Positions 1-14,503 are shown, counted from the stretch's first letter. The stretch is DNA of 16,900 bases from Candidatus Iainarchaeum sp. (GCA_028713935.1 JAQTNI010000031.1:1-16900); one strand, 5' to 3'. A program made the numbers and translations. The notes: generated by a model from the letters alone, not told the origin.

Positions 1-661
1 CTTCTCCGAACTCGGTTTCCTTGAATTTTTTGTGCCCAATTCCTCGCGTCAAAAGCTCTTGCATTAAACCTTTTTTCAGCTTGCGTGCTTGCTCAATAAC
101 CTCGTCGGTTTGTTGGATAGCAGAATCAATACAAAACAAAACAGATGCAATATGTGATTGTTCAATCAACGGAGGAGTTGAAATTTTAACTGTTTTTAAT
201 AATTTCATGTTCAGGCCATTTCTTCCTTCTGCTCCTGATAAATTTCTTAACTCAGAATACCTCGATTGCAAATTATAGTAAAGATATTCTGGGACTATTT
301 TATGTTCATTTGGAATTATCCCAACTATAGATTGGTTGCAGGTTGTACTAATTCCCAAAATTCCAACTGTGCCCCTTGTTTTCCCCTGGCCATTCAATGC
401 AATAACAATTGTTTTTTTAGGCAATAATATTGTGTTCGAATTTTGCATTCCTTTTTCTGAAATAAATCCTGTCGTTCTAATAATTAACCCTTGGTGTACG
501 TCCCCTGAAGTCATCCAAGGAATATCTCCGTCCCAGTAATCTTTTACTTTGGTGCTTGGAGTGCTTCCAGTTTTTAAATTTCCAGCATCAGTTAAATCTA
601 AAATGCCCCAATCTTTTGGTATTTTTCCAGATTCAGTTTGTTTGAACTTTTGTTTGAGCAT
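1..661 (-). CDS. hsdS: Type I restriction-modification specificity subunit HsdS (N-terminal part; 3' end lies beyond the left window edge)
   Basis: Absent from the ORF track because it has no in-window stop. The reverse strand from ATG 661-659 is open for 220 codons to position 1: MLKQKFKQTESGKIPKDWGILDLTDAGNLKTGSTPSTKVKDYWDGDIPWMTSGDV...IALNGQGKTRGTVGIL...KISTPPLIEQSHIASVLFCIDSAIQQTDEVIEQARKLKKGLMQELLTRGIGH. This is a target-recognition domain followed by the conserved PPLxEQ...helical spacer typical of HsdS. The start overlaps the upstream gene by 29 nt. Confidence 0.85.
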   Translation of the reverse strand, partial: MLKQKFKQTESGKIPKDWGILDLTDAGNLKTGSTPSTKVKDYWDGDIPWMTSGDVHQGLIIRTTGFISEKGMQNSNTILLPKKTIVIALNGQGKTRGTVGILGISTTCNQSIVGIIPNEHKIVPEYLYYNLQSRYSELRNLSGAEGRNGLNMKLLKTVKISTPPLIEQSHIASVLFCIDSAIQQTDEVIEQARKLKKGLMQELLTRGIGHKKFKETEFGE

Positions 662-1634
662 ACTTTCCCTCAATATTATCAATAATTGCTTTCCCTTGAG
701 TCAAAACTTCTTCATAAGTCATAATCTTAATGTGAGATAATTGGTAGTTCCACTTTCTGATTTTTTTTACTGCTTCGGGTGTTGCATCGTTTCCAATGAT
801 AACAATTCCACGTGGTCGAAGCTCGTTAATTCCTTCTTCATCAGCTATTACTGTGCTATGTGCAGCGGCGATTGCTGATTCCATATAATTAATTAGCTGG
901 TCGACTGCTTGGATAACTTTAGCAGATACGCTTCCATCGGAATTAGTTATTTCATCAGAGATTAATTTTATTTCAACGATATCATTAGTTTTATTATACC
1001 GTTCAAGGTAAAAATCAAATTTGCTGTATGCTCCCCTTAATTTTTGCGGCTCGGCCGTGATATATTCAAGCCCAAAAAGCCAGGAATGCGCATAAAGAAA
1101 CTCTTGTAAATCAGCTTCTGATATTTTTTTTACTTTAACATTTTTAATTTTAGTATCTAATTCTTCAACATCGTTTTTAAAGTCTGGAAGTCGAGTTTTA
1201 CTCAATTCGATTATTTTTTCAGCAACTTTTTTAAGCGCATCGTCACGTTGTTGCTCTACATCCTTTTGGCGAATTTGATAATTTTCAATTAGCTGCTGTT
1301 TTTCATGGAGCTCCATCTGAAGCTGTTGAACCTCGTCTTCAATGGTTGGTTTCCAACCGACAACTTTGGCTATCTTTTTAAGGAAAAAAAGGACTGACTC
1401 TAGATGTGCCAAAGTGTGGAGATTAAAACCATAATTTTTAAACCACTTAGAACCGCCACGCCTAGGTTTTTTGGAGTCGGATAAAAAACGGACAAATTCT
1501 TCGCCAGTTTTTTTATTTTTTGCCGCAAAGATTTTTCCTGAACGATTTTTTTCAGAATAGACTGTTTCTTCTGCTAGCGATTCATAGGGCTCCCCGAGTT
1601 TCATGTCGTGCGCAGGAGTCTTTTCATCAGTCAT
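633..1634 (-). CDS. Shedu-like (DUF4263-type) PD-(D/E)xK nuclease with an unclassified basic plus coiled-coil N-terminal region, embedded in the type I R-M operon
   Basis: 333-aa ORF. The C-terminal half reads EFLYAHSWLFGLEY...KFDFYLERYNKTNDIVEIKL (ExK at 966-974)...QAVDQLINYM...RPRGIVIIGND...KWNYQLSHIKIMTYEEVL. That gives a D..ExK..Q arrangement plus the terminal hhhhG..N..h.hhTY(D/E)xhL signature I associate with DUF4263/SduA. It overlaps the hsdM stop by 8 nt and the hsdS start by 29 nt. Confidence 0.6.
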   Translation of the reverse strand: MTDEKTPAHDMKLGEPYESLAEETVYSEKNRSGKIFAAKNKKTGEEFVRFLSDSKKPRRGGSKWFKNYGFNLHTLAHLESVLFFLKKIAKVVGWKPTIEDEVQQLQMELHEKQQLIENYQIRQKDVEQQRDDALKKVAEKIIELSKTRLPDFKNDVEELDTKIKNVKVKKISEADLQEFLYAHSWLFGLEYITAEPQKLRGAYSKFDFYLERYNKTNDIVEIKLISDEITNSDGSVSAKVIQAVDQLINYMESAIAAAHSTVIADEEGINELRPRGIVIIGNDATPEAVKKIRKWNYQLSHIKIMTYEEVLTQGKAIIDNIEGKYAQTKVQTN

Positions 1635-3318
1635 AATACCCTAACTCCTTTAAGTATTTTTCCAGTTCTTTTTCAGTTTCGTTTCTTTTTAGTTCATTTG
1701 ATCTTAGTTTTAAGTATGCTTCCTTCACATTGATTTTTTCTTCCTGTTCTGTAATGTCAACGTAGCGCGTGACATTTAGATTGTAATCGTTTTCTCCAAT
1801 TTCTTTGAGTGTTGCAACTTTTGCGTATTTTTCAATGTCTTTGAATTCGTCAAAAGCATTCCAAATTTTTTCGAGGTCTGAATCTCTCAAAAAGTTCTGA
1901 GCTTTGCCCTCTTCGAAATCGTTGGCTGCATAAATGAACAAGATTTTGCCTTTGCGCTTGGCTTCCTTTGCACGATTAATAATCAAAATGCAACCTGGTG
2001 AGGGGGTATTGTAGAAAAGGTTTGCTGGCAATGAAATTACTGCTTCAATAAAATCTTTTTCCAAGAATTTTTGTCTAATTGTGCCTTCTTGCCCTCCACG
2101 GAACAACACCCCATTATCAAGTACAATTCCGAGTTGGCCATTATCTTTTAGTGTTGCAAACATGTGTTGAATCCAAGCCCAATCCGCAGTTTTTTGTGGA
2201 GGCAAGCCAAAGGAAAAGCGGCCATATGGGTCTCCTTTGACTAGTTCATCTCTGCCCCATTCATTCTGATTCCACATTGGGTTGGCGATTACTCGATCAA
2301 AGAGCATTAGTTGTCTGTCTTCAAGCAATTTTGGCGTCAGTAATGTGTCGCCTTTTTCTATTCTGGCGTCAAGTACGCCGTGCAATAACAGGTTCATTTT
2401 GCAGATTGCCCAAGTATTAAGGTTTTTTTCTTGGCCATAAAGTGAAATGTTCTGCGGGTTTTTCTTGTGCTCTCGTAAATACCGCACTATTTCAATCAGC
2501 ATTCCGGCGCTGCCCAGGCATGGGTCACAAGCTCGCATTCCCTCTTCCGGTTTGAGCAAGTGAGCAATTAATTGCACCACCTTTTGGGGGGTGTAGAATT
2601 CTCCGCCTTTTTTCCCTGCATCATCAGCAAATTGTTTAATCAAATATTCGTAAGCCCGGCCAAGCAAGTCTGGTTCGGAAAGGTCGGAGTTTCGCAGGCG
2701 ATACGCGCTGAAGTGTAAAATAAGTTTTGATAAAACGCGGTCTGGCAGGCGGTCTTTGTTGTTGAAATCAGTAACTCCTAATACCCCTTCAAGTAAGGGG
2801 TTTTGTTCTTCCAGTGCTTCGTTAGCTTTGTTTATTGCTGCACCAATGTCGCTGGTTGTTTTGCGCAGCTCTTCCCAGCGTGCGCGCGGCGGAACAAAAA
2901 ATTGGTGTTCATCTGGGTCTTCCCAGGCAGCTTTTTTGTTGCCCATTTCTTTTTCGATTTTTTCAGCTTCTTCTTCAAACACATCATTTAAGCGTTTGAG
3001 AAAAAGCATTCCAAAAATGTAATTTTTATAATCTGAAGAATCAATGCTACCGCGCAAAATGTCTGCGGCTTTCCAGAGGTGAGTTTCAAGCTCTTGTTGG
3101 GTTAATTTGGAAGTTGCTTTTTCTTTCGGGATAAATAGGTTTTGACCGCCAACTTTTTGAAGCTCGACGATACCCTCTTCTTTGAGTTCTTGCAAGTACT
3201 TTTCTGCAGTATTCCAAGAAATTCCTATTTTTTTGGCAATCTCTTCAGGGGTTATTGGTTTTTCATGTTTTTTGATTAAATCCAAAATAGCTGCCTTTCT
3301 AATATCTGCCTTTGCCAT
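1627..3318 (-). CDS. hsdM: Type I R-M N6-adenine DNA methyltransferase HsdM with an extra N-terminal winged-HTH domain
   Basis: The track ORF begins at TTG 3327; the first ATG is at 3318 (MAKADIRK...). It has the HsdM N-terminal helix LWKAADILRGSIDSSDYKNYIFGMLFLKRLND and AdoMet motif I RACDPCLGSAGML. Catalytic motif IV appears as NPMW (VIANPMWNQ, 2272-2283). The first ~75 aa, ILDLIKKHEKPITPEEIAKKIGISWNTAEKYLQELKEEGIVE, look like a wHTH. Confidence 0.9.
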   Translation of the reverse strand: MAKADIRKAAILDLIKKHEKPITPEEIAKKIGISWNTAEKYLQELKEEGIVELQKVGGQNLFIPKEKATSKLTQQELETHLWKAADILRGSIDSSDYKNYIFGMLFLKRLNDVFEEEAEKIEKEMGNKKAAWEDPDEHQFFVPPRARWEELRKTTSDIGAAINKANEALEEQNPLLEGVLGVTDFNNKDRLPDRVLSKLILHFSAYRLRNSDLSEPDLLGRAYEYLIKQFADDAGKKGGEFYTPQKVVQLIAHLLKPEEGMRACDPCLGSAGMLIEIVRYLREHKKNPQNISLYGQEKNLNTWAICKMNLLLHGVLDARIEKGDTLLTPKLLEDRQLMLFDRVIANPMWNQNEWGRDELVKGDPYGRFSFGLPPQKTADWAWIQHMFATLKDNGQLGIVLDNGVLFRGGQEGTIRQKFLEKDFIEAVISLPANLFYNTPSPGCILIINRAKEAKRKGKILFIYAANDFEEGKAQNFLRDSDLEKIWNAFDEFKDIEKYAKVATLKEIGENDYNLNVTRYVDITEQEEKINVKEAYLKLRSNELKRNETEKELEKYLKELGYYD

Positions 3319-3351
3319 AAGAATCAATAAACATATTATGGAGCGTCATAG

Positions 3352-3366
3352 TTTTTAAATATATAC
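3352..3366 (-). promoter_or_regulatory. Candidate TATA/BRE box for the hsdM operon
   Basis: The minus strand reads GTATATATTTAAAAA, centred ~41 nt upstream of ATG 3318. This is compatible with a short leader. Confidence 0.3.
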
Positions 3367-3430
3367 TTTTTGGGTTGGGGTTGTGTTTAGCCACCTAGCC
3401 ATAATGGCAATATGCTCTTTCTAGAATTTG

Positions 3431-3461
3431 TTCAACCGGTAGGTTGATTGTAATTCAACCG
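3431..3461. promoter_or_regulatory. Direct repeat TTCAACCG (3431-3438 and 3454-3461), a candidate operator in the divergent hsdM / TrmB-like intergenic region
   Basis: An exact 8-mer occurs twice with 23-nt start-to-start spacing, about two helical turns. It lies immediately upstream of the TATA-like TTATATTA at 3465-3472. Confidence 0.3.
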
Positions 3462-3464
3462 CAG

Positions 3465-3472
3465 TTATATTA
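3465..3472 (+). promoter_or_regulatory. Candidate TATA box for the TrmB-like gene
   Basis: TTATATTA lies 37-44 nt upstream of the in-frame ATG at 3509. It abuts ATG 3473, which argues against 3473 being the true start. Confidence 0.3.
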
Positions 3473-3508
3473 ATGCGGCTGAGTGAAGTAGTTATATACA
3501 GAGAATGT

Positions 3509-4021
3509 ATGGATGAGCGGGTTTTGAGGTTTCGGGAGTTATTCCAAGGGTTAGTGCCGAATTTTGGTTTGTTGCATGCAAAGGCGTGCGTTGCTTTGTT
3601 GTCTGGGGGGATTAAGACTGCAAAAGAATTGTCTCAAGAGACTTTGATTTCTCATAACAAGATTTATTCTGTTTTAAAGGATTTGGCGCGTGAAAAAATT
3701 GTTTTTTGCACTAATGCTGACCCAGTGACTTTTTACATTAAGGATTTTCCAAAGATTTATGAGAAGCTTGTGAATAGGAAGATTTGTTTTTTGCAGAAGC
3801 TTCCGGAAGAATTGGACAAAATGCTCAGCAATGAAAACGAGGCCCTGGAAGAGAAAGAGTATTTGATAAAAGTTTCTGAAAAACAAACACGGTTGTTTGA
3901 TAATAAAAACAAGGTTTTGGTCAAAGAACCCTTGGAAGTAAAGCAAGTGTTAAAGCAATTGAATATTTATATTGAAAAACTCGAACCAAAAAAAGAATAC
4001 ACATACGCGATTTATCATTAG
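3509..4021 (+). CDS. TrmB-like winged-HTH transcriptional regulator (short form: HTH plus coiled coil, no effector domain)
   Basis: FGLLHAKACVALLSGGIKTAKELSQETLISHNKIYSVLKDLAREKIVF matches the TrmB/archaeal wHTH pattern (LGL..EakvY..Ll..g..ta.ela...gi.r..vY.vL..L...G.v). The track ORF starts at 3473; I prefer ATG 3509 because of the TATA position. Either start is possible. Confidence 0.55.
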   Translation: MDERVLRFRELFQGLVPNFGLLHAKACVALLSGGIKTAKELSQETLISHNKIYSVLKDLAREKIVFCTNADPVTFYIKDFPKIYEKLVNRKICFLQKLPEELDKMLSNENEALEEKEYLIKVSEKQTRLFDNKNKVLVKEPLEVKQVLKQLNIYIEKLEPKKEYTYAIYH

Positions 4022-4036
4022 CTCCAATAACAAAGG

Positions 4037-4048
4037 CTTATTAAAAAA
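4037..4048 (+). promoter_or_regulatory. Candidate TATA box for the 264-aa gene
   Basis: CTTATTAAAAAA is centred ~26 nt upstream of ATG 4069, which is leaderless-type spacing. Confidence 0.4.
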
Positions 4049-4068
4049 TCGCGACTAATTAAAATAGA

Positions 4069-4863
4069 ATGTACTTGCAAATTCCAAAAAAGTATACAGT
4101 CAATAAAACTACAATGAATTTGGACTTCTATTACTTGGCGTTAGTAAAAAAGAAGTTCAAAATCCCTACTTTGAGGCCAGATACTTCCAAGATTTCCCAC
4201 TCGAATAAGCTTTATTTCGGAGAATACTATGATGCATTGAGAAAACGCCTCGAAATATTTTGTTTTCAAGAAAGGACAGCAATGGAATTGAATGCACTTC
4301 CAGCAAATAATGATAGTCTATTTCTACTTAGGGTTTTCATTTTTGCTTACATAGTTAATACTTGCGCAATATTGGATAATGTTTGTTGGTGTTTAAACTA
4401 TTTTTATGATCTTAAATGTGACAAATACGACATTGGGATGAGGTTCTCAAATAAAAAAGAGAAAGAATTCTTAAAAAAATTAAATAGAAAGAATGCCAAT
4501 CTCGCACAAAAATTAGATGGAAAAGATATTCAAGAATGGATTGATTGGTTTGAGGAATATCGAGATATAATTCAACACAGATCTATGATTCATGTAATGC
4601 CAGTTCAAGAAGCTGGCAAGCAAATAGCTATAAAAATACCTTCAGATCCAACTCTCGCTGCAGGGGTGCCCGTTAGCAAAGGGGGTAAACTACTTTCGTA
4701 TGAAGAGAATTGGGATAGAATCTACAAAGAGAAGGGGAATCCCTTTATTGAGATCGAAAAATTCTATTGCAATACAACAGAGAAAATAACCAGCATAATT
4801 TCAGCCCTAATGGAAGAAATTTCGGATGGAAAAACTTACTCAGACAGCATCCCAATTGTATAA
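4069..4863 (+). CDS. Hypothetical protein with an HEPN-like Rx4H motif (candidate RNase/toxin)
   Basis: 264 aa. It has a hydrophobic helix FIFAYIVNTCAILDNVCWCLNYFYDL, then a helical segment, then EWIDWFEEYRDIIQHRS with R-x4-H at 4561-4578. This spacing and order are typical of 4-helix HEPN families of the Abi/Cthe_2314/MAE_18760 type. I did not recognise any other domain. Confidence 0.4.
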   Translation: MYLQIPKKYTVNKTTMNLDFYYLALVKKKFKIPTLRPDTSKISHSNKLYFGEYYDALRKRLEIFCFQERTAMELNALPANNDSLFLLRVFIFAYIVNTCAILDNVCWCLNYFYDLKCDKYDIGMRFSNKKEKEFLKKLNRKNANLAQKLDGKDIQEWIDWFEEYRDIIQHRSMIHVMPVQEAGKQIAIKIPSDPTLAAGVPVSKGGKLLSYEENWDRIYKEKGNPFIEIEKFYCNTTEKITSIISALMEEISDGKTYSDSIPIV

Positions 4864-4877
4864 GCTAGAAACAGCAA

Positions 4878-4887
4878 CATATATTAA
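4878..4887 (+). promoter_or_regulatory. Candidate TATA box for the small RHH gene
   Basis: CATATATTAA is centred ~30 nt upstream of ATG 4913. Confidence 0.4.
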
Positions 4888-4912
4888 CACCTATAGTCAT
4901 TATGTAAAGCGT

Positions 4913-5041
4913 ATGCCGTATAGAAGTGGTGTTACTACTATTCAGTTGAGCCCGGATACGAGGGATAAGCTCAAGGATTTGGGTAAGAAAGGCGAGACTT
5001 ACGAGGAAATTATTCTTAGGCTTGTTAAAGCGTATAGGTAG
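4913..5041 (+). CDS. Small ribbon-helix-helix antitoxin-like protein (archaeal putative-antitoxin / VapB-like type)
   Basis: 42 aa: MPYRSGVTTIQLSPDTRDKLKDLGKKGETYEEIILRLVKAYR. The pattern TIxLsxdtxxxLxxLgkkGEtYeevIxRLl matches the short archaeal RHH antitoxin family usually paired with PIN toxins. The track ORF starts at 4826 and overlaps the upstream gene; ATG 4913 has its own TATA. Confidence 0.5.
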   Translation: MPYRSGVTTIQLSPDTRDKLKDLGKKGETYEEIILRLVKAYR

Positions 5042-5094: not shown

Positions 5095-5850
5095 ATGGAT
5101 TGGGTTCTTGCCATTGATAAAATCAAAATGGGACTTAGCAGGAAGCATTTGGTTACTATTTTTGGCTCCTGCGAAGTTGATTACGTTGGCAGAGCCACTA
5201 GCAAGCTTTCCAAGGGTAAAAGACTTGTCTTAATCAAGGGGGATAATTCTATTAGCATTCACCAAAATAGGCTAGTCAGGCCCACAAATTACATGATGAA
5301 CACAAGCATAACAATAGAATCGACAAAACAGGGGGCTGTTTTAACTGCAAAGCGGCTTAATCCGAGAGAAATTATTACTGTAATGTTTGACAAAATTGAT
5401 GATGTTCAATCATATGAAATGGAAATCAGCGACGACCTAAGGCTAAGCGGTTCTGAAAGAGATTTGAATGACATTTTAATGGAAGACTTGTCTATGATAG
5501 AACCAGGATTAAAGCCAATTAACCAGCAGGAGCATTTCAGAAAAGGAATAGCGGACATTATTGCAGAAGACAAACACGGCCACTTGGTGGTTATAGAGCT
5601 AAAGCGTAGGCAAGCTGACTATGCGAGCGTAACCCAATTGCAAAGGTATATGCAAGAAGTTCAATCAATCAAAAACTGCAAAGCAAGAGGTATACTATTG
5701 GCTCCAAGCATAAGAAAAAATGCCTTAGAATTATTAGAAAAAAATGGTTTGGAATTCGCAAAAATAGATTTTGAATTAAAGCCCTCAAGCAAAGAAAAAG
5801 CGCACATCAAAGGGTTACAGAAGAAGCAGCAAACCTTGGACAAATTCTAG
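5095..5850 (+). CDS. nucS: Endonuclease NucS / EndoMS (mismatch-specific PD-(D/E)xK endonuclease), full length
   Basis: The N-terminal domain reads CEVDYVGRATSKLSKGKRLVLIKGDNSISIHQNRLVRP. The C-terminal nuclease reads GIADIIAEDKHGHLVVIELKRRQADYASVTQLQRY. The C-terminal tail GLQKKQQTLDKF (QQTLDKF at 5827-5847) resembles the PCNA-interacting tail of archaeal NucS. Confidence 0.9.
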   Translation: MDWVLAIDKIKMGLSRKHLVTIFGSCEVDYVGRATSKLSKGKRLVLIKGDNSISIHQNRLVRPTNYMMNTSITIESTKQGAVLTAKRLNPREIITVMFDKIDDVQSYEMEISDDLRLSGSERDLNDILMEDLSMIEPGLKPINQQEHFRKGIADIIAEDKHGHLVVIELKRRQADYASVTQLQRYMQEVQSIKNCKARGILLAPSIRKNALELLEKNGLEFAKIDFELKPSSKEKAHIKGLQKKQQTLDKF

Positions 5851-5953
5851 TAAAAAATCCAAAAATTGGGGGTCTAACAGTTACTATTTTAAATGCTATG
5901 TTGAATACTGGGGCAGGGCTGCGAGCAAGCTTCCAAAGGGAAAACGCCTGTTA

Positions 5954-6568
5954 ATGATTAAGGGGGATTCTTCTTTTGCAATTCACCAGAACAGGCTTTT
6001 GAGGCCTGCTAATTACATGATGAATGCATCTGTTTCAAATGAAATCGAGGGAAACACTCTTGTGATTACTGCGCGCAAGGCAAAGCCGAGGGAAATAATA
6101 AAGGCTGTTTTTTATTGCATTGATGACGTAAGGGCATATGAAATGGACTCAGTTTCCGACATAAGACTTTTTGGCTCTGAAAAAGAGTTAAGCGATGAGT
6201 TGATGCAGGACCTTGGCTTTCTTGAAAAAGGCTTAAAACCCCTGAACCAGGAAGAAGTGCTGCGCAAAGGCCTTGTTGATATTCTCGCAGAGGATTCAAA
6301 AGGCAGGCTTGTTGTAATTGAACTGAAACGCAGGCAGGCAGATTTTAATGCTGTGCAGCAATTGAAGCGTTACATGGACCAGGTCAAAAATCTCAAGGGG
6401 ATAGAAACAAGGGGGATTTTGATTGCCCCGGATATAAGGAAAAACGCGCATGAGCTTCTTGAAAAATACGGGCTTGAATTTTTCCACCTTGATTTTGAAA
6501 TAGGCAATCCCAAAGCAAAAATAAAGGGACTGCAGAAAAAACAGCAGACAATTGACAAATTTTGTTAA
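5954..6568 (+). CDS. Second NucS/EndoMS paralog, 5'-truncated relative to the family (possible pseudogene or N-terminally shortened isoform)
   Basis: About 60% aa identity by eye to the upstream NucS. Catalytic residues are retained (VDILAEDSKGRLVVIELKRRQADFNAVQQLKRY) along with the tail GLQKKQQTIDKFC. In-frame homology continues upstream of ATG 5954 to about 5882 (YYFKCYVEYWGRAASKLPKGKRLL), but that stretch back to the in-frame stop at 5777-5779 contains no ATG/GTG/TTG. Confidence 0.75.
   Translation: MIKGDSSFAIHQNRLLRPANYMMNASVSNEIEGNTLVITARKAKPREIIKAVFYCIDDVRAYEMDSVSDIRLFGSEKELSDELMQDLGFLEKGLKPLNQEEVLRKGLVDILAEDSKGRLVVIELKRRQADFNAVQQLKRYMDQVKNLKGIETRGILIAPDIRKNAHELLEKYGLEFFHLDFEIGNPKAKIKGLQKKQQTIDKFC
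6518..6562 (+). repeat. Left copy of a direct repeat: the nucS-2 3' end encoding KIKGLQKKQQTIDKF
   Basis: It shares an exact 18-mer CAGAAAAAACAGCAGACA (6533-6550) and flanking similarity with 8532-8579. Confidence 0.6.
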
Positions 6569-6579
6569 GTTGCTGATTC

Positions 6580-7836
6580 TTACCTTTTTTTGAGCAGTAG
6601 TTTGCCTATTTTTTTCTCAAGCTCTTTCAAATAAAAATCCGGGGCTGTTTGTTCTTTTCTGGCTGAGAGAACAATATCCATGGCAGTCTGCGGATCTTTT
6701 TTTGCAATTTTTAATATAATTGCAAAAACTGTGCATTGTTCATGTTTTCCGCGTTCTTCTATATTTAACGCATTTATTAGAATGGGCAATATTTTTTCTT
6801 CAGAATAAGAGCAGAGTGCATCAACTGATTGTGACTCTTTGTTGAAAACTTCATCTCCATAATTGGTTATTGCTTGAAGAGACAGCTTGATTTTTTCTTG
6901 TTCGATTTGGCTAAAAACAGAAAGAAGTTCTGGAAAATTTGCCTGTTTAATTGGCCGTAATTCCTTTTTCAAAAACAACACAATCCATTCATTAGACAAG
7001 TTTGTAAAAGAATGCCAAAAGCCAAAACCATTAGGGCGCAATACAGGAATAGGCGGGCTATGAGATGAAAATATTGCGGTATTTAATTTTCTTTTCTCAA
7101 CAGAATCAGAATAGGAAAACTTGACACAATTTTTTATATGGCTGTAACCGTTTCTTCCAGGGGCAACTCCGCCAAGAATCGTCACCCACGCTTTCAATGC
7201 TTCAGGATGAGAATTAATTGAATCAAATTCTTTTACTCCTGTGTTGGCTCCGGAAGTTGTGCCGCGCGGTGGGAGCAAAAGGATTCTTTCAACTGTGGTT
7301 TGGCCTTTTTCATCAGTCATTAAAATGAAGCTTTTTTTCCTTCTAACTACAGCCATTTTTTTGTCAAAAAATCTTTCCCTAATTTCTTTTTGCAATAAGC
7401 CGCTATGCAAAATCTCGTCAAAATTGAAAACTCTAGTATTCCATAAGAAATCGAAATGGGCGCGGTATGCAGAAGCAGTTTCCTTGCTTTTTATAACAAA
7501 AACAAAAATTGGCTTAAGAAACCACAAGAATATTGCTACCCTGTCCCCGTATATTAGGGTAGTTGCAGGCCCTGCGTATTCTGGCGGAATCGGCTTGAAT
7601 TCAGACAATGCGCTTTTTAGGAAACCCCTGCCTTCTACATATAATTGCCTGGCTGTGATGCCTTTCTTTTCCCTTTCCTTCAAATACCATTGGGTAAACT
7701 CTGGATCGATTTCCATTGCCCGGTCTGTTGCTCCCCATCCAACAAATGGTTTGCCTACCTGAATCAAATCAGTAAATGCTTTTTTGAAAGCATTTTTTCC
7801 TCTGAAAACTATGATTTCGGGAGTTAACTGGGCCAT
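6580..7836 (-). CDS. Hypothetical 418-aa protein; N-terminal ~135 aa resemble the effector (C-terminal) domain of TrmB-family regulators without any HTH
   Basis: This is a long ORF with no plausible competing frame. The N-terminus reads PEIIVFRGKNAFKKAFTDLIQ...YLKEREKKGITARQLYVEG...TTLIYGDRVAIFLWFLKPIFVFVIKSKETASAYRAHFDFLWN. That follows the pattern of TrmB-like regulator C-terminal domains (..iYgdkvai...p.aI.I.n..ia.....F..lW). I did not recognise the remaining ~280 aa. Confidence 0.55.
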   Translation of the reverse strand: MAQLTPEIIVFRGKNAFKKAFTDLIQVGKPFVGWGATDRAMEIDPEFTQWYLKEREKKGITARQLYVEGRGFLKSALSEFKPIPPEYAGPATTLIYGDRVAIFLWFLKPIFVFVIKSKETASAYRAHFDFLWNTRVFNFDEILHSGLLQKEIRERFFDKKMAVVRRKKSFILMTDEKGQTTVERILLLPPRGTTSGANTGVKEFDSINSHPEALKAWVTILGGVAPGRNGYSHIKNCVKFSYSDSVEKRKLNTAIFSSHSPPIPVLRPNGFGFWHSFTNLSNEWIVLFLKKELRPIKQANFPELLSVFSQIEQEKIKLSLQAITNYGDEVFNKESQSVDALCSYSEEKILPILINALNIEERGKHEQCTVFAIILKIAKKDPQTAMDIVLSARKEQTAPDFYLKELEKKIGKLLLKKR

Positions 7837-7907
7837 GAAAAAAATGTGCCAAGAAACATTAAAAAGGGTATAGACCTGCTTTGCCCTGTCAGAGTTGGCT
7901 CTTTGCC

Positions 7908-7926
7908 AGTCCTGGTAGCCAGGACT
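7908..7926. promoter_or_regulatory. Perfect inverted repeat AGTCCTGG-tag-CCAGGACT in the divergent intergenic region
   Basis: It has 8-bp arms and a 3-nt loop. It lies between the 418-aa gene (minus) and the RHH antitoxin gene (plus), ~25 nt upstream of the TATA-like TATTTAATTA (7952-7961). Confidence 0.35.
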
Positions 7927-7992
7927 TTAAAAAACTGCTCCTGCCGAAAGCTATTTAATTAGTTTGACTAAGTTTATGTTAGGTTAAGTTAT

Positions 7993-8256
7993 ATGCAGAA
8001 AACTGTTGCAGTGAATGTGAAAGTAAAAGATTATACCAACAGGGTAATCGGGGTTGTAAAGGAGAGGTATGGCCTGAAAGACAAGGGAGAAGCGCTTGAC
8101 AAGTTTGCTGAGCTTTGCGGCGAAGAATTTGTTGAACCAGAAGTCAGGGAAGAAGTTATTAGGGAAGTAATTGAATCATGCGAAAGGCACATAAAAAAAT
8201 ACGGTTTCAGGAAAACCAGCATTAAGGAACTGGACAAGCTTTGCAGAGGCGAATAA
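7993..8256 (+). CDS. RHH-type antitoxin (RelB-like; archaeal DUF2683-like)
   Basis: 87 aa. AVNVKVKDYTNRVIGVVKERYGLKDKGEALDKFAE gives a beta-strand/helix/helix RHH pattern. Its stop TAA is immediately followed by the toxin ATG (8254-8259 TAAATG). Confidence 0.65.
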   Translation: MQKTVAVNVKVKDYTNRVIGVVKERYGLKDKGEALDKFAELCGEEFVEPEVREEVIREVIESCERHIKKYGFRKTSIKELDKLCRGE

Positions 8257-8538
8257 ATGCCTTTCTCTTTCGGCTTGTCTGATGAGCTTAAGGCAGAAAT
8301 AAAAATTCTGTCAAAAAGAGACAGGAAGACATGCGAAATACTGAACAAAAAAATAATAGAAATAGCAAACTCTGATGAAACAACAATAGAGCACTACAAA
8401 AATCTTCGCCATGACTTAAAAGAGTACAAAAGAGTGCACATTGCAAAAAGCTTTGTATTGCTGTTCAAGGTCTTTAAAAAAGAGAATTTCATTCTTTTTG
8501 ACAAATTCAGGCACCATGACGACATTTACAAAAAATAA
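8257..8538 (+). CDS. relE: RelE/ParE-superfamily type II toxin (mRNA interferase-like)
   Basis: 93 aa. LSDELKAEIKILSKRDRKTCEILNKKIIEIANSDE...YKNLRHDLKEYKRVHIAKSFVLLFKVFKKENFILFDKFRHHDDIY matches the RelE/StbE layout (f.k.lkkL.k......i.kki..l...P....k.L.g.l.g.yR.ri.g.yRliY.i......i.ll.ig.H.diY). Confidence 0.75.
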   Translation: MPFSFGLSDELKAEIKILSKRDRKTCEILNKKIIEIANSDETTIEHYKNLRHDLKEYKRVHIAKSFVLLFKVFKKENFILFDKFRHHDDIYKK

Positions 8539-8579
8539 AGCAGGAATTACAGAAAAAACAGCAGACACTGGACAATTTT
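8532..8579 (+). pseudogene. Orphan remnant of a nucS 3' end (right copy of the direct repeat), encoding KIKQELQKKQQTLDNF
   Basis: The frame starting at 8529 reads QKIKQELQKKQQTLDNF. Compare KIKGLQKKQQTIDKF (nucS-2) and HIKGLQKKQQTLDKF (nucS-1). It contains an 18-nt exact match to 6533-6550 at 8550-8567. No nucS body lies upstream, since it abuts and overlaps the relE stop. Confidence 0.55.
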
Positions 8580-8602: not shown

Positions 8603-8613
8603 TTTTATATTTT
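8603..8613 (+). promoter_or_regulatory. Candidate TATA box for the AdoMetDC-like gene
   Basis: TTTTATATTTT is centred ~26 nt upstream of ATG 8634. Confidence 0.4.
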
Positions 8614-8633
8614 GTTAAACGCTTTGTGTTAAT

Positions 8634-9005
8634 ATGGCTGATTTAGAACCAAAAATTTACAGGCAAAGACTGATTATTGAAGGACATTATTCAATTCAAG
8701 CTGATGGCGAAACAATTAGAGATTATTTAAACAAGCTTTCAAAAGTGTGTGAAATGAGAATTTTTTCAGGGCCTTATTCCTGGCCTCCGGATAAATGGGA
8801 TAACCCCGAAGTCAAATTATTTGAATTAAACGGATTTGTAGCATGGACTGAAAGCGGAAGCCACGTATACGCCTGGAGACACTGCAACTTCTTCACAGTA
8901 GATGTCTACAGCTGCAAAAAATTCAATACAACCAAAGTTACCAACTTCACAAAAAAATACTGGAAATCAAAAGACCTAAAACACAAAAAAATAAACGCAA
9001 TCTAA
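8634..9005 (+). CDS. S-adenosylmethionine decarboxylase-like (SpeH/AdoMetDC class 1 fold) pyruvoyl-enzyme homolog
   Basis: 123 aa. GFVAWTESGSHVYAWRHCNFFTVDVYSCKKF aligns by eye to the SpeH core ...vvisESHltiHTWPEygyaaiDlFTCG, with an ES candidate self-cleavage site, aromatic-W, and a D-x-(F/Y)-(T/S)-C motif. It has an extra Gly-Ser between ES and H. Confidence 0.5.
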   Translation: MADLEPKIYRQRLIIEGHYSIQADGETIRDYLNKLSKVCEMRIFSGPYSWPPDKWDNPEVKLFELNGFVAWTESGSHVYAWRHCNFFTVDVYSCKKFNTTKVTNFTKKYWKSKDLKHKKINAI

Positions 9006-9156
9006 AAACTCTTTAATTCACTGCAAACAAACTCTCGTTAGCTTCCTTCTTTTCATTAACCAGTGGGACTTGCACCTGTAGATCGGTATGGGAGGCGAAA
9101 AGCAGGCTATGATAGACAAATTCTTCTGAAATCAGCGGAAACCCGCTTCTGCTTGG

Positions 9157-9167: not shown

Positions 9168-9188
9168 TTGTTTTGCTCTTATTTGCTT

Positions 9189-11132
9189 ATGGAGCAGGAT
9201 TATTCAGATTTTTTTCCTTATGAAGAATTCAAGCCCTTGCAGATAAACGCAATGGATTTTGTTTCAGAGGTTGTTGAAAGCAAAACAATAGGCCTGTTCG
9301 AGGCTTATTGCGGCTTTGGAAAAACAATTGCAACTTTTGCGCCTGTCCTCGCTGCAGGAAAAAAAATTCTGCTTTTAACCCCCACTTATTCCGCGAGAAA
9401 CGCAGCAACAGCGGAAGCACTGAAAATAAACAAGGTCAAGGGCAAAAAAATCAGGATTGCTGATTTGCGCGGCAAGCAGGTCATGTGCAGGAAATTTGAA
9501 AAGGATTTTTTCAGCCACGAGGCCTGCCTGAATGCAGTGAAATACAAAAAGGACTGTGAATATTATTCCAATACTTTTTCAAAAAACAGGATGCTTTCAA
9601 AAGAAGCAAGCTCCACAATTAGCAATTTGCAGAGAACAGTGACTGAAAATCCGCAAAAATTTTTCGGCTCAGGCCTGATTGAAAAAGAGCCCTTGTTTTT
9701 CCAGGCTTTCCAGAAAACCTGCGATTCAAAAGGGCTGTGCTCTTACGAAATAATGAAAAAAATGATTGAAGAGGCAGACATTGTAATCCTGGATTATTTC
9801 TGGTGCTTCACTGGAATTTTCCATATCCTCAAAAAATTAATCAATCCAAAGGAATTCGTATTGCTTGTTGACGAAGCAGACATGCTTGTGGAAAGGCTTT
9901 ACACTGATTTTCAGGTACAACTTGGCCTGCAGGGCCTCCAGAGGCTTTCCAAGCAGGCAGGCCTTCTTCTTTCAAGCGGGGAATTGCAGGAAACAGACAT
10001 TGAATTCCTTTCAGAATTCATTCGGCATGCTTCTGAGTTTATCCAGAAAAACAATCCTGAAAGGCCTTTGGAACCGCAAGTGATAATTGATTTTTTTGTA
10101 AAAAAATTCAGGGAAAATGCAAGAGAACAGGGCCTCGAGGGAAACATTGGCTTTGAAACAATAATTGAAAACCTTTCAACTGTTGCAGAAGCAATTTCCG
10201 GTTCCGAAGAATTTGAAAAAGCAAGCGCAAGGCCGGATATTTTCCTTGCACACCTTGAAAAAATAAAAAATTCTTCCGAATACCTGTCTTTTATTTCAAA
10301 GGCAAAAAACAGGATAATTGTAAAGCCGTTTGAAATAAACAGCATTGTCCTTGCAAACGGAATGACTCTTTACTCCACGCTAAAGGAATTCCAGAGCGCA
10401 ATTCTTTTTTCAGCCACTCTCGGGGATTCTGTTTTGTTCCAGAAAGAGCTTGGCCTTAATCCTGAAGAAACAAAAATTTTCAAGGCGGCAAGCATGCCCC
10501 ACAAAAATCTCCTGGTTTTGATTGACACAGAGCTTGACTCAACCTACAAGGCAAGGGACAGGAATTTTTTTGAATACATTGAAAAAATAAAGGCAATCAG
10601 GCAGGCAGACAATTCCCTGCTTGTGAGCTGCTGCAATTCTTTTGAAGCGGAAAAAATCCTGAAAGAACTGCCTTTTTTGGAAAATGCCGAACAAGCGGAA
10701 AACCTTTTGCCTGAAAAAACATACGTACTGAACATAAGGACAAAGCATGCGAGAAGCACAAACAAGGCAAAAAGAATGCGCAATTGCATAATAATCGGCC
10801 TGCCATTGCCTGACTATTCCGATTTTTATTTCAAGCAGAGAAAAGATTACCTTGAAAAAAAATACGGCAAATCAGAGGCAGGCAGGCTGATTAACGGGAA
10901 AGCAGTCCACACTGCTGTGCAATTAATGGGCAGGATTACAAGGGATTTGACAAGCCCGAAAACAATCACTCTTGCTGACAGGAGATATGTTCGGGATTTT
11001 TTTTTGGGGGACTTTTATTTCAAGTCAATTCCGGATTATCTGAAGCCATACATCAAAACAGTTGATTCAACGCAAAAACTCAAAATGGAAATAAGGGCTT
11101 TCTGGCAGAACGCGAAGATGGAGCAGGATTGA
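9189..11132 (+). CDS. xpd: XPD/Rad3-family (DinG-like) superfamily 2 DNA helicase with an Fe-S cluster domain
   Basis: Walker A is EAYCGFGKT and the DEAH-type box is LLVDEADML. Cys residues spaced as in the XPD 4Fe-4S domain occur at VMCRKF, EACLN, KDCEYY and GLCSYE. Motif VI is VQLMGRITRD. Size is ~647 aa from ATG 9189. Confidence 0.8.
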   Translation: MEQDYSDFFPYEEFKPLQINAMDFVSEVVESKTIGLFEAYCGFGKTIATFAPVLAAGKKILLLTPTYSARNAATAEALKINKVKGKKIRIADLRGKQVMCRKFEKDFFSHEACLNAVKYKKDCEYYSNTFSKNRMLSKEASSTISNLQRTVTENPQKFFGSGLIEKEPLFFQAFQKTCDSKGLCSYEIMKKMIEEADIVILDYFWCFTGIFHILKKLINPKEFVLLVDEADMLVERLYTDFQVQLGLQGLQRLSKQAGLLLSSGELQETDIEFLSEFIRHASEFIQKNNPERPLEPQVIIDFFVKKFRENAREQGLEGNIGFETIIENLSTVAEAISGSEEFEKASARPDIFLAHLEKIKNSSEYLSFISKAKNRIIVKPFEINSIVLANGMTLYSTLKEFQSAILFSATLGDSVLFQKELGLNPEETKIFKAASMPHKNLLVLIDTELDSTYKARDRNFFEYIEKIKAIRQADNSLLVSCCNSFEAEKILKELPFLENAEQAENLLPEKTYVLNIRTKHARSTNKAKRMRNCIIIGLPLPDYSDFYFKQRKDYLEKKYGKSEAGRLINGKAVHTAVQLMGRITRDLTSPKTITLADRRYVRDFFLGDFYFKSIPDYLKPYIKTVDSTQKLKMEIRAFWQNAKMEQD

Positions 11133-13859: not shown

Positions 13860-14401
13860 TCAAGGCACAAAGACAGCCGCCGCAATCACTGTTACCCAGT
13901 CATCGCCTTTTGTTCCAATGCTGGATTGCGTGCAATTGTAGGTTTTCACTATTTTGCCATTGATTTTGAAATACTGCTCTTTTTCCTTCCATTCAACTGC
14001 ATTCGGAGCTTCTATTCCTAAAATGCTTGAAAGCATGCTTGCAGCCAGGTCTTCAGCATAATCCCCCGCAGTTTGCTCTGTCTGGCCAAAGCAATGGTGC
14101 TCAGAAATATATCCGTGCTGGTTTTTGTCTGCAGGCTCTGCCATTCCAATTGCCGCAGCCATAAGCCTGTTCGGCTCATTGCTTTCGTTCCTGCTCATTA
14201 CGCAGAAAACAACCTGCCCAGGATTCAGGTGTTCAAGGCCGCTTTTCTTGCTTCAATCTGGCAGCCTGGCGGAAGAATGCTTGAAACAGAAACAAGGTTG
14301 AATTTTTCAATTCCCGCATCGCGCAAAGCCATTTCAAAGCTCATGAGTTTTTCCTTGTGGACACCAACGCCATTAGTGAAAAAAACTTTTTTTGGAACCA
14401 T
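13860..14401 (-). pseudogene. pdaD: Pyruvoyl-dependent arginine decarboxylase PdaD, split by a -1 frameshift (or a 1-nt homopolymer assembly error) near 14243-14246
   Basis: Two adjacent minus-strand ORFs are involved. The first reads [58 protein letters not shown], with the VSS|I self-cleavage motif. The second, in frame -1, reads ([18 protein letters not shown])MSRNESNEPNRLMAAAIGMAEPADKNQHGYISEHH...VTVIAAAVFVP. Adding one A to the AAAA run at 14243-14246 yields a continuous ~180-aa PdaD (..[23 protein letters not shown]..). Confidence 0.75.
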
Positions 14402-14503
14402 TGTATTCAATTGCAGCACCTCGTTCAAAATTACAAAATTTTTTTTAAAATAAAACAATAAATAAGTGGAAATAGTATAAAAACATTTCTGAAAAACTTT
14501 TTT

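Follow-up and report, generated by a model that had tools for sequence, protein, structure and literature searches.

The nucS locus and its duplicated 3' end

In this work we analysed a window of 16,900 nt from Candidatus Iainarchaeum sp. (GCA_028713935.1 JAQTNI010000031.1:1-16900), a DPANN archaeon of the Iainarchaeota, in which copies of the 3' end of the NucS/EndoMS gene nucS alternate with small accessory genes. From left to right the array consists of the tail of the second of two nucS genes (nucS-2), an accessory gene (orf418) with a relBE-like toxin-antitoxin (TA) pair, a displaced nucS tail that we call relic A, a gene of the AdoMet_dc family with a short cassette-end element, a second displaced tail (relic B) and the gene of an XPD/Rad3-type helicase (9168-11132, plus strand; Pfam DEAD_2 and Helicase_C_2). 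For comparison we used 24 related loci from a nucS-based scan of species-representative genomes and metagenomes; nine of them are genome-collection loci, and those with a title are listed as Iainarchaeum, Micrarchaeota or simply archaeon. The helicase is the conserved right anchor of the array, syntenic and 80-85% identical in amino acid sequence in the loci L003 and L004. An assembly artefact is ruled out, because two short contigs independently assembled from other sequencing runs (L001 and L002) show the identical arrangement and the phenomenon is also found in other projects.

The gene-proximal, attachment site (att) L-like copy of the repeat lies at 6517-6568 on the plus strand and contains the last 15 codons of nucS-2 with a cysteine codon and the stop, encoding the PCNA-binding (PIP) box QQTIDKFC. 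Relic A, the attR-like copy, is found at 8531-8579 on the same strand and is a displaced nucS 3' end without a start codon. Positions 6517-6562 and 8531-8579 (46 and 49 nt) align with one 3-nt indel and about 41 identities (self-BLAST E 3e-6). The exact 18-mer CAGAAAAAACAGCAGACA occurs in the window only at 6533-6550 and 8550-8567, against a chance expectation of 0.05, and two matches to it were found in none of 200 dinucleotide shuffles. The repeat described in the initial annotation is therefore real, and its details were all seen on re-reading: the second copy keeps the reading frame (KIKGLQKKQQTIDKF versus KIKQELQKKQQTLDNF), it has no nucS body upstream, with stops just before the repeat (...QAP*RHLQKIKQELQ...), and its start lies within the final codons of the toxin gene (stop codon 8536-8538). 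A profile of the relatives' nucS ends matches relic A with E 0.0016 (nhmmer), and relic A has the window-specific variant at 4/4 diagnostic sites. Besides the two tail copies named initially, both of which stand, two more had been overlooked, namely the tail of the first nucS gene (5810-5856) and relic B.

Relic B (9097-9136, plus strand) is an older displaced nucS tail, GAAAAGCAGGCTATGATAGACAAATTCTTCTGAAATCAGC, translated as EKQAMIDKFF* with its stop at 9127-9129, and it runs into the ancestral flank upstream of XPD. Its FF* ending is the tail type that L004, a locus of the window's clade, has today. A 25-mer across the L004 nucS stop matches 9112-9136 with 3 mismatches, no match of any kind was obtained in 200 shuffles, and the profile of the relatives' nucS ends gives E 0.015 at 9098-9128. 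A counterpart is found in L003 (4237-4275), where an older FF* tail also leads into the XPD flank. Judged from these sequences, the ancestral nucS tail was FF*.

The genome is AT-rich and the repeat includes an A-tract, which raises the question whether A-rich sequence of low complexity could have matched by chance. This objection was already considered in the initial annotation, and we regard it as extremely improbable: neither the 18-mer pair nor relic B was reproduced in any of the 200 shuffles made for each, the profile E-values are low, and the repeat is found again at the corresponding position of three genomes, being restricted to these three among the other loci.

The toxin gene of the window ends in TAC AAA AAA TAA (8527-8540), with an open -1 frame through the PIP relic, and in L006 (4274-4330) the relic is in frame straight after the stop of a ParE-family toxin. 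A frameshift or read-through would add a PIP-like tail to the toxin in both. Such a fusion is ruled out as a general function by L003, where the relic is 46 nt away and internally frameshifted, and the juxtaposition of toxin and relic is probably a coincidence.

Recurrence in related loci and unoccupied sites

Self-BLAST of the window and the 24 related loci found direct repeats of the nucS tail in the window, L006 and L025; the sole other matches were repeats unrelated to nucS in three other loci. A targeted search afterwards added L003. In L003 the segment 1691-1756 recurs at 3035-3098 (66 nt, with a 1-nt deletion), after a Fic/Doc gene and the same relBE pair as in the window. In L006, 3708-3739 and 4295-4326 are identical at 30/32 positions and bracket a 0.55-kb (555 bp) ParE-family pair, of which the toxin is 33% identical to the window toxin and the antitoxin is unrelated; 18 nt separate this cargo from its relic. 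The L025 copies (7675-7735 and 14313-14373, 52/61 identical) bracket 6.6 kb with a nucleotidyltransferase gene, an unknown gene and a subtilase gene. The cargoes of the window, L006 and L025 are unrelated to each other, and L003 has relBE in common with the window. The proposal of repeated insertion at the nucS 3' end, with attL/attR-like repeats, is borne out by L003, L006 and L025, in each of which the locus's own tail is duplicated. Every gene-proximal copy has an intact PIP-type tail and a stop, so that the reading frame of the target is preserved after insertion.

Unoccupied sites are found among the relatives as well. The nucS gene of L017 and L024 directly adjoins the enolase gene, in convergent orientation. 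About 200 nt separate the L025 relic from the 3' end of the enolase gene, so the 6.6 kb are inserted exactly between nucS and enolase. The interval between these two genes is different in almost every relative. L004 has nucS with the tail ...IDKFF*, one small open reading frame (ORF) and XPD, and it has no relBE. The small ORF (6895-7257) has no family match, and a short repeat of the nucS stop region (TGAAAACAGC, at 6836-6850 and 7250-7275) appears to flank it. It may represent a further, minimal insertion of the same kind.

On balance we favour the reading that the PIP tail of nucS serves as an attachment site for the serial, att-type insertion of cassettes without a recombinase of their own in Iainarchaeota. 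The insertions would be independent in the window lineage and in at least three relatives, and they would have brought mostly TA pairs.

Cassette cargo and its age

The toxin gene (8257-8538, plus strand) encodes a 93-aa protein that probably belongs to the RelE/YafQ superfamily. Its match to TIGR00053, the YafQ family, has an E-value of 2e-17 and 63.6 bits, which is below the curated cutoff of 87.25; the match to RelE_StbE (E 0.007) and that to the HP0892 toxin in the PDB (E 0.01) are weaker, and no Pfam family matches above threshold. We found 257 homologues, and those with a named source come from Diapherotrites or Micrarchaeota and are called RelE or YafQ. The 87-aa putative antitoxin (7993-8256, plus strand) is relB-like by position only, without a family match in Pfam or NCBIfam. 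It is located directly upstream of the toxin in one operon, ending at 8256 where the toxin ATG starts at 8257, and the same order is found in seven loci.

The region 7922-8550, with promoter, antitoxin and toxin, is common to the window and L003 with 89.5% identity, and its left neighbour is orf418 in the former and Fic/Doc in the latter. The DNA at 6563-8531, initially taken for a single cassette, is thus composite. The earlier suggestion of repeated rearrangement at the locus also holds. Between the window and L003 the synonymous divergence (dS) of relBE is 0.37 (pS 0.295, 103 sites), roughly one third of the values for the host genes on either side (nucS 1.19, XPD 0.87), a gap of four to five standard errors. 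The module is therefore much younger than its flanks, and it moved after the two lineages had split. The relics in the window and L003 each carry the nucS variant of their own genome at 4/4 sites where the two tails differ within the shared relic region; the leftmost 14 nt of the L003 relic have window-like synonymous variants. From the young module and the relics of native type it follows that relBE came to this site, or was formed anew there, independently in each lineage, and that the resident tail was duplicated both times. We also looked at the raised identity of the nucS 3' ends of the window and L003 as a sign of co-transfer (4 mismatches in 54 nt versus 17% overall) and rejected it because there are too few sites.

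The orf418 gene (6580-7836, minus strand) encodes an accessory protein of 418 aa without a match in Pfam, PADLOC or NCBIfam. Its 21 homologues are found in DPANN archaea and Patescibacteria near Bro-N, KTSC and Fic genes, and in another contig one homologue lies between Bro-N/KTSC and Fic genes. From this distribution it looks like a cross-domain accessory gene of DPANN archaea and Patescibacteria (candidate phyla radiation, CPR, bacteria). The AlphaFold model (predicted local distance difference test, pLDDT, 85) matches a cupin barrel and a TrmBL2/NucT-like domain, with a helical region at the end. About 30% of the orf418 length is also present in proteins of about 235 aa with a TrmB domain. 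A hidden integrase or transposase is ruled out by the missing family match and the confident model with these folds.

The second cassette of the window (8603-9005, plus strand) comprises a TATA-like box (8603-8613) and a 123-aa gene (8634-9005) of the S-adenosylmethionine decarboxylase family (Pfam AdoMet_dc, E 4e-8). The initial annotation considered this gene a housekeeping neighbour, a view that does not hold, since it is not conserved there: L003 has three unrelated small genes at this position, and the gene is missing in L004 too. Because it is bounded by relic A on one side and by the cassette-end element and relic B on the other, and is missing at the site in L003 and L004, the AdoMet_dc gene itself is best read as cassette cargo. 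Both window cassettes whose upstream region was read, relBE and AdoMet_dc, have their own TATA-like boxes. The GC content is not decisive as a marker of foreign DNA (cargo 32-41% versus 40-43%).

Further right in the window, a gene for a pyruvoyl-dependent arginine decarboxylase (13860-14458, minus strand) is split, with a change of frame near 14234-14252. The L004 gene keeps to one frame, the L012 gene forms a single ORF, and the split would be either a frameshift pseudogene or a sequencing error. Pyruvoyl decarboxylase paralogues of the AdoMet_dc type act as arginine decarboxylases in some archaea. The AdoMet_dc-family cassette, which encodes another pyruvoyl decarboxylase, might substitute for the broken arginine decarboxylase gene.

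Cassette arrays at tRNA-Tyr

The same TA module is found away from nucS in L043, L045, L047, L048 and L052, with a nucleotide identity of 73-78% where measured (L043, L045, L047). It forms a discrete unit of about 0.6 kb with the same boundary element in seven different contexts. In L043 (2515-6975), L045 (2668-4662) and L048 (207-1516) we find arrays of cassettes of about 0.6-1.3 kb with one or few genes each, and the cargo in L043 and L045 includes ATP-grasp, Fic, a PIN pair and HicAB with NUDIX. The cassettes in these two loci are separated by 19-23-nt repeats, GCAAATCCGGGAGG(C/G)GGGA, which are the 3' end of the intron-containing tRNA-Tyr(GTA) heading both arrays; on the short L048 contig the heading tRNA-Tyr was not seen. 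In both loci checked the relics match the tRNA acceptor sequence of their own genome. No integrase is found inside the L043, L045 and L048 arrays.

Many boundaries have a longer, conserved cassette-end element of about 40 nt (GGGAGTTGCACnCGnAG, nine bases and GGGAGGCGGGA; GGGAGTTGCAC...GGGAGGCGGGA in short), which ends in the tRNA acceptor strand. Several carry this element instead of the 19-23-nt tRNA copy, among them all three in L048, where two copies bound the NUDIX and relBE cassettes and the third is followed by a C39 peptidase gene. The element at 9062-9101 on the plus strand of the window (GGGACTTGCACCTGTAGATCGGTATGGGAGGCG), between AdoMet_dc and relic B, is the one that bounds the NUDIX and relBE cassettes in L048. 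With a profile free of window sequence it has an E-value of 2.8e-4 and is the top match in 136 kb, and its 3' part is the acceptor/T-stem strand of tRNA-Tyr.

Alignments of the seven relBE modules place a cassette-end element before the relB promoter in every copy by positional homology. It can be recognised clearly in L052, L048, L043, L045 and L047, in part in L003 and weakly in the window, where a degenerate form with a tRNA-Tyr 3'-end relic and a hairpin (AGTCCTGG/CCAGGACT) is located at 7889-7929 on the plus strand and is not significant by nhmmer. The tRNA-Tyr arrays may be a general cassette-capture system in these archaea.

The two nucS genes of the window

The window has two adjacent nucS genes, both with the Pfam domains NucS_N and NucS_C and with predicted PIP tails (QQTLDKF in nucS-1, QQTIDKFC in nucS-2) of the NucS/EndoMS pattern Qxx[LIM]xx[FY][FY]. 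The complete nucS-1 (5095-5850, plus strand) is a foreign, xenologous gene with 49-66% amino acid identity to the single nucS of each of the 24 relatives, L024 being the closest. Its tail (5810-5850, ..KGLQKKQQTLDKF*) is the further copy of the PIP-box-coding segment mentioned above, of repeat family D2. In contrast, nucS-2 (5892-6568, plus strand) is the native orthologue of the relatives' nucS, with 58-93% identity over all loci and 75-93% in the nine genome-collection loci. It is without its promoter and first ~24 codons: its homology to L003 begins at window position 5892 (L003 1077), about codon 25, and the first in-frame ATG is at 5954. Since nucS-2 is closest to the relatives, nucS-1 reaches only 49-66% and the native 5' end is gone, the pair seems to consist of an incoming foreign gene and a freshly truncated resident gene. 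The initial annotation was right that two copies are present, but they are not a plain tandem.

The junction of the two genes lies about 41 nt past the nucS-1 stop (5851-5954), where the native promoter and codons were lost. The dN/dS of nucS-2 relative to L003 is 0.048, and judged from this value the gene shows no sign of decay. Either the truncation is very recent, or the gene may still be expressed from the internal ATG at 5954.

Given the truncated nucS-2, one could imagine that further nucS paralogues once stood in tandem and that deletion or incoming cargo removed their bodies, so that only the relics are left of them. The truncation in the window, however, removes the 5' end, whereas the relics keep only the last 30-70 nt, and no trace of a nucS body is found upstream of any relic. 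The relics also bear the variants of the native genome and not those of a diverged paralogue, the relatives have a single nucS, and the cargo directly abuts the relics (in L006 with the 18-nt gap). We consider an origin from paralogues very unlikely.

Upstream of nucS-1 a defence-type island is found (633-5041). It contains genes for a Shedu SduA nuclease (633-1634, minus strand), a type I HsdM methylase with an N-terminal helix-turn-helix domain (1627-3327, minus strand) and a TrmB regulator (3473-4021), a weakly HEPN-like ORF (4069-4863) and, overlapping it, a DUF7557 ORF (4826-5041). None of the island genes has a tblastn match in any relative's locus, where an ABC transporter or other genes are found upstream of nucS. 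The island probably came together with nucS-1, and its left border is outside the window.

Proposed mechanism of insertion

The observation itself is confirmed, and the mechanism is what we infer from it. The last 30-70 nt of nucS, which code for the C-terminal PIP tail, would act as the attachment site, and the chromosomal tail would recombine reciprocally with a segment resembling a nucS tail on the incoming DNA, which is presumably a circle. With each insertion a full nucS tail would be rebuilt at the gene and the old tail left as a non-coding relic beyond the cargo, and repeated insertions would give rise to an array. A tyrosine-type recombinase acting in trans might catalyse site-specific recombination of the conservative type. 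Alternatively, Campbell-type homologous recombination could be responsible, with circles that loop out between the repeats and re-enter a relative.

Every repeat pair contains CTGCAG-AAAAAA-CAGCAG or synonymous variants of it, an imperfect dyad with a 6-nt spacer which stems from Leu-Gln-Lys-Lys-Gln-Gln codons, and three relics start at its A-tract. The crossover core might be the A-tract of the dyad. CTGCAGAAAAAACAGCAG and the 40-nt cassette-end element are candidate substrate sequences for a recombinase.

Several observations weigh against an attachment site at the nucS tail. A recombinase gene was found neither in the ORFs of the window, in the L025 cargo nor in the scanned cargo ORFs of L003 and L006, which for the bracketed DNA of the window agrees with the initial annotation: the domain scan finds no integrase there, and the fold of orf418 is not that of a recombinase. 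In IMG/VR, three scans with degenerate patterns revealed no virus or plasmid with a nucS-tail attP; 13 matches were judged to be chance, without nucS context, and the other scans gave nothing. The IMG/VR scan for the cassette-end element gave two doubtful matches. The empty sites proposed as a check are present in relatives (L017 and L024 between nucS and enolase, and L004 without relBE), but the window species gave no empty site, circular junction or alternative arrangement, and exact-protein look-ups of nucS-1, the toxin, AdoMet_dc and XPD returned the two identical short contigs or nothing. In L020, L012, L007 and L018 variable cargo follows nucS without a detectable relic. Between relic A and relic B the window has other cassettes than L003, which calls for extra exchange events. 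Finally, the repeat lengths vary from about 28 to 66 nt and the right ends are 6-12 nt short of the stop codon in three cases. This argues against a single enzyme, because one fixed core would yield more uniform repeats.

The variable lengths and boundaries, as well as the missing recombinase, would suit homology-facilitated illegitimate recombination of linear foreign DNA, in which one end is homologous within nucS and the other is joined illegitimately in the tail. Selection would have kept nucS intact, and the duplication would be a by-product without a dedicated site. The window-like left 14 nt of the L003 relic might suggest a foreign donor, and the nucS-1/nucS-2 junction at about 5892 does look illegitimate. 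Nevertheless, at least five independent joins would be needed within the same 70 nt, all including the same A-tract, and the repeat copies are closer to each other and to their own genome than to a diverged donor. An illegitimate join would normally remove DNA of the recipient instead of duplicating it. The same family of cassettes also occurs in regular arrays with tRNA relics, a layout typical of site-specific insertion. We find this explanation quite unlikely.

It is also conceivable that each relic is the attR of a once complete, integrase-bearing plasmid or provirus and that later deletions left the addictive or useful genes, so that small mobile cassettes never existed. Archaea are known to integrate elements in tandem and to lose the integrase after integration (PMC8371274). 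TA pairs are the genes that one expects to survive such decay longest, and L045 carries a Phage_integrase gene beside a tRNA-Asp, some 4 kb away from its array. However, the two youngest-looking events, L006 (30/32) and L025 (52/61), are already without integrase, replication or virion genes, and L006 measures only 555 bp. The relBE module is a discrete unit with the same boundary element in its seven contexts, and four of four cargoes without an integrase are unlikely to result from decay alone. Decay of complete elements is unlikely as an explanation, and insertion of recombinase-less cassettes at the nucS tail is the reading that we retain.

Comparison with known systems

The logic of this mechanism is that of archaeal integrative elements, for which att sites within protein-coding genes, integration in tandem and loss of the integrase have all been described (PMC8371274). 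Like elements of the pNOB8/SSV type with a tyrosine recombinase (PMC8371274), the nucS locus has direct repeats of the target 3' end, a restored gene and stacked insertions, and in both the integrase may be absent. The differences are that the target here is the nucS PIP tail, for which our literature search gave no report as an attachment site, that the units are 0.55-2 kb (at most 6.6 kb) in size, and that none of four has integrase, replication or virion genes. As for an att duplication, the repeats of the target 3' end flank the insert, the reading frame is intact and unoccupied relatives exist; a recombinase in or next to the element was not found.

In streptococci, cis-mobilisable elements (CIMEs) are found beside integrative and conjugative elements (ICEs); they are att-flanked, have no integrase, are mobilised in trans and accumulate by site-specific accretion. 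The short att-bounded elements without their own recombinase and the tandem arrays at one site are the same in our archaeal locus. CIMEs, however, are bacterial and their partner ICE supplies the integrase, whereas no partner element or enzyme was found for the nucS locus. Casposons have Cas1 and a polymerase, terminal inverted repeats and 14-15-bp target duplications, and they insert at the 3' end of the aEF-2 gene. They too are archaeal elements that repeatedly target the 3' end of a conserved protein gene, with tandem arrays possible, but the nucS locus has no Cas1 or polymerase, no terminal inverted repeats and no 14-15-bp duplications. A transposon with target-site duplication is likewise rejected, as the repeats are 28-66 nt long, no terminal inverted repeats bracket the insert and no transposase domain is found.

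Regarding their content, the arrays resemble integrons and clusters of attC sites lacking integron-integrases (CALINs), which are also known from Archaea (PMC9668308) and in which TA cassettes are the commonest functional class in archaeal integrons (PMC9668308). Common features are arrays of one- or two-gene cassettes (orf418 with relBE and AdoMet_dc in the window; NUDIX, relBE and C39 peptidase in L048) rich in TA pairs and acetyltransferases, an integrase that is often not nearby and a short conserved end element. On the other hand, the window has no IntI with attI, and the arrays are headed by nucS or, in L043 and L045, by tRNA-Tyr; the boundaries are copies of resident 3' ends (nucS, tRNA-Tyr), and the relBE and AdoMet_dc cassettes of the window have their own TATA-like boxes. 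Integron attC sites are imperfect hairpins of 55-140 nt. We folded six boundary regions as single strands and found no long hairpin: five have z between -1.3 and +1.8, and the sixth (L048 787-908, z -3.7) forms several short hairpins and not one long one, so that attC was rejected.

A bacterial parallel is found in Photorhabdus, where TA modules, including solitary ParE/RelE operons, are flanked by res sites of the Tn3 family and relatives have empty loci with a single site (PMC13617665). In both cases a TA operon lies between two copies of a site without a mobility gene, and a single-copy empty locus exists. The Photorhabdus sites are transposon resolution sites in bacteria (PMC13617665), whereas the repeats at the nucS locus are the coding end of a host gene in archaea. 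Taken together, the nucS-tail locus resembles a site-specific integration hotspot with integrase-less accretion, and its content is integron/CALIN-like.

A wider proposal, which we put forward only tentatively, is that Iainarchaeota, and perhaps other DPANN archaea, possess an integron-like capture system without IntI and attC. In this system promoter-bearing cassettes of 0.5-2 kb (TA, NUDIX, Fic, AdoMet_dc and others) with an end element of about 40 nt would be inserted by a putative trans-acting recombinase at the 3' ends of resident genes, tRNA-Tyr being the primary and the nucS PIP tail the second site. The boundaries would be gene-end copies, and the PCNA-binding tail of NucS would be rewritten by each insertion.

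Implications

The genomes of DPANN archaea are tiny, and little is known of how accessory genes are gained and exchanged among them; the nucS locus would be a sequence-defined capture site. It offers a contrast of occupied and unoccupied states, cargo that can be dated (with a dS of about a third of that of host genes) and a parallel site at tRNA-Tyr. The locus further offers a way to test how solitary TA modules spread in the absence of visible mobility genes, a question that bacteria pose as well, and it points to a recombinase or to a recombinase-free route. Each insertion would also replace the last residues of the PIP box, the tails that we observed being FF*, FC* and LFEALDGH*, and might in this way modulate the coupling of mismatch repair to PCNA.

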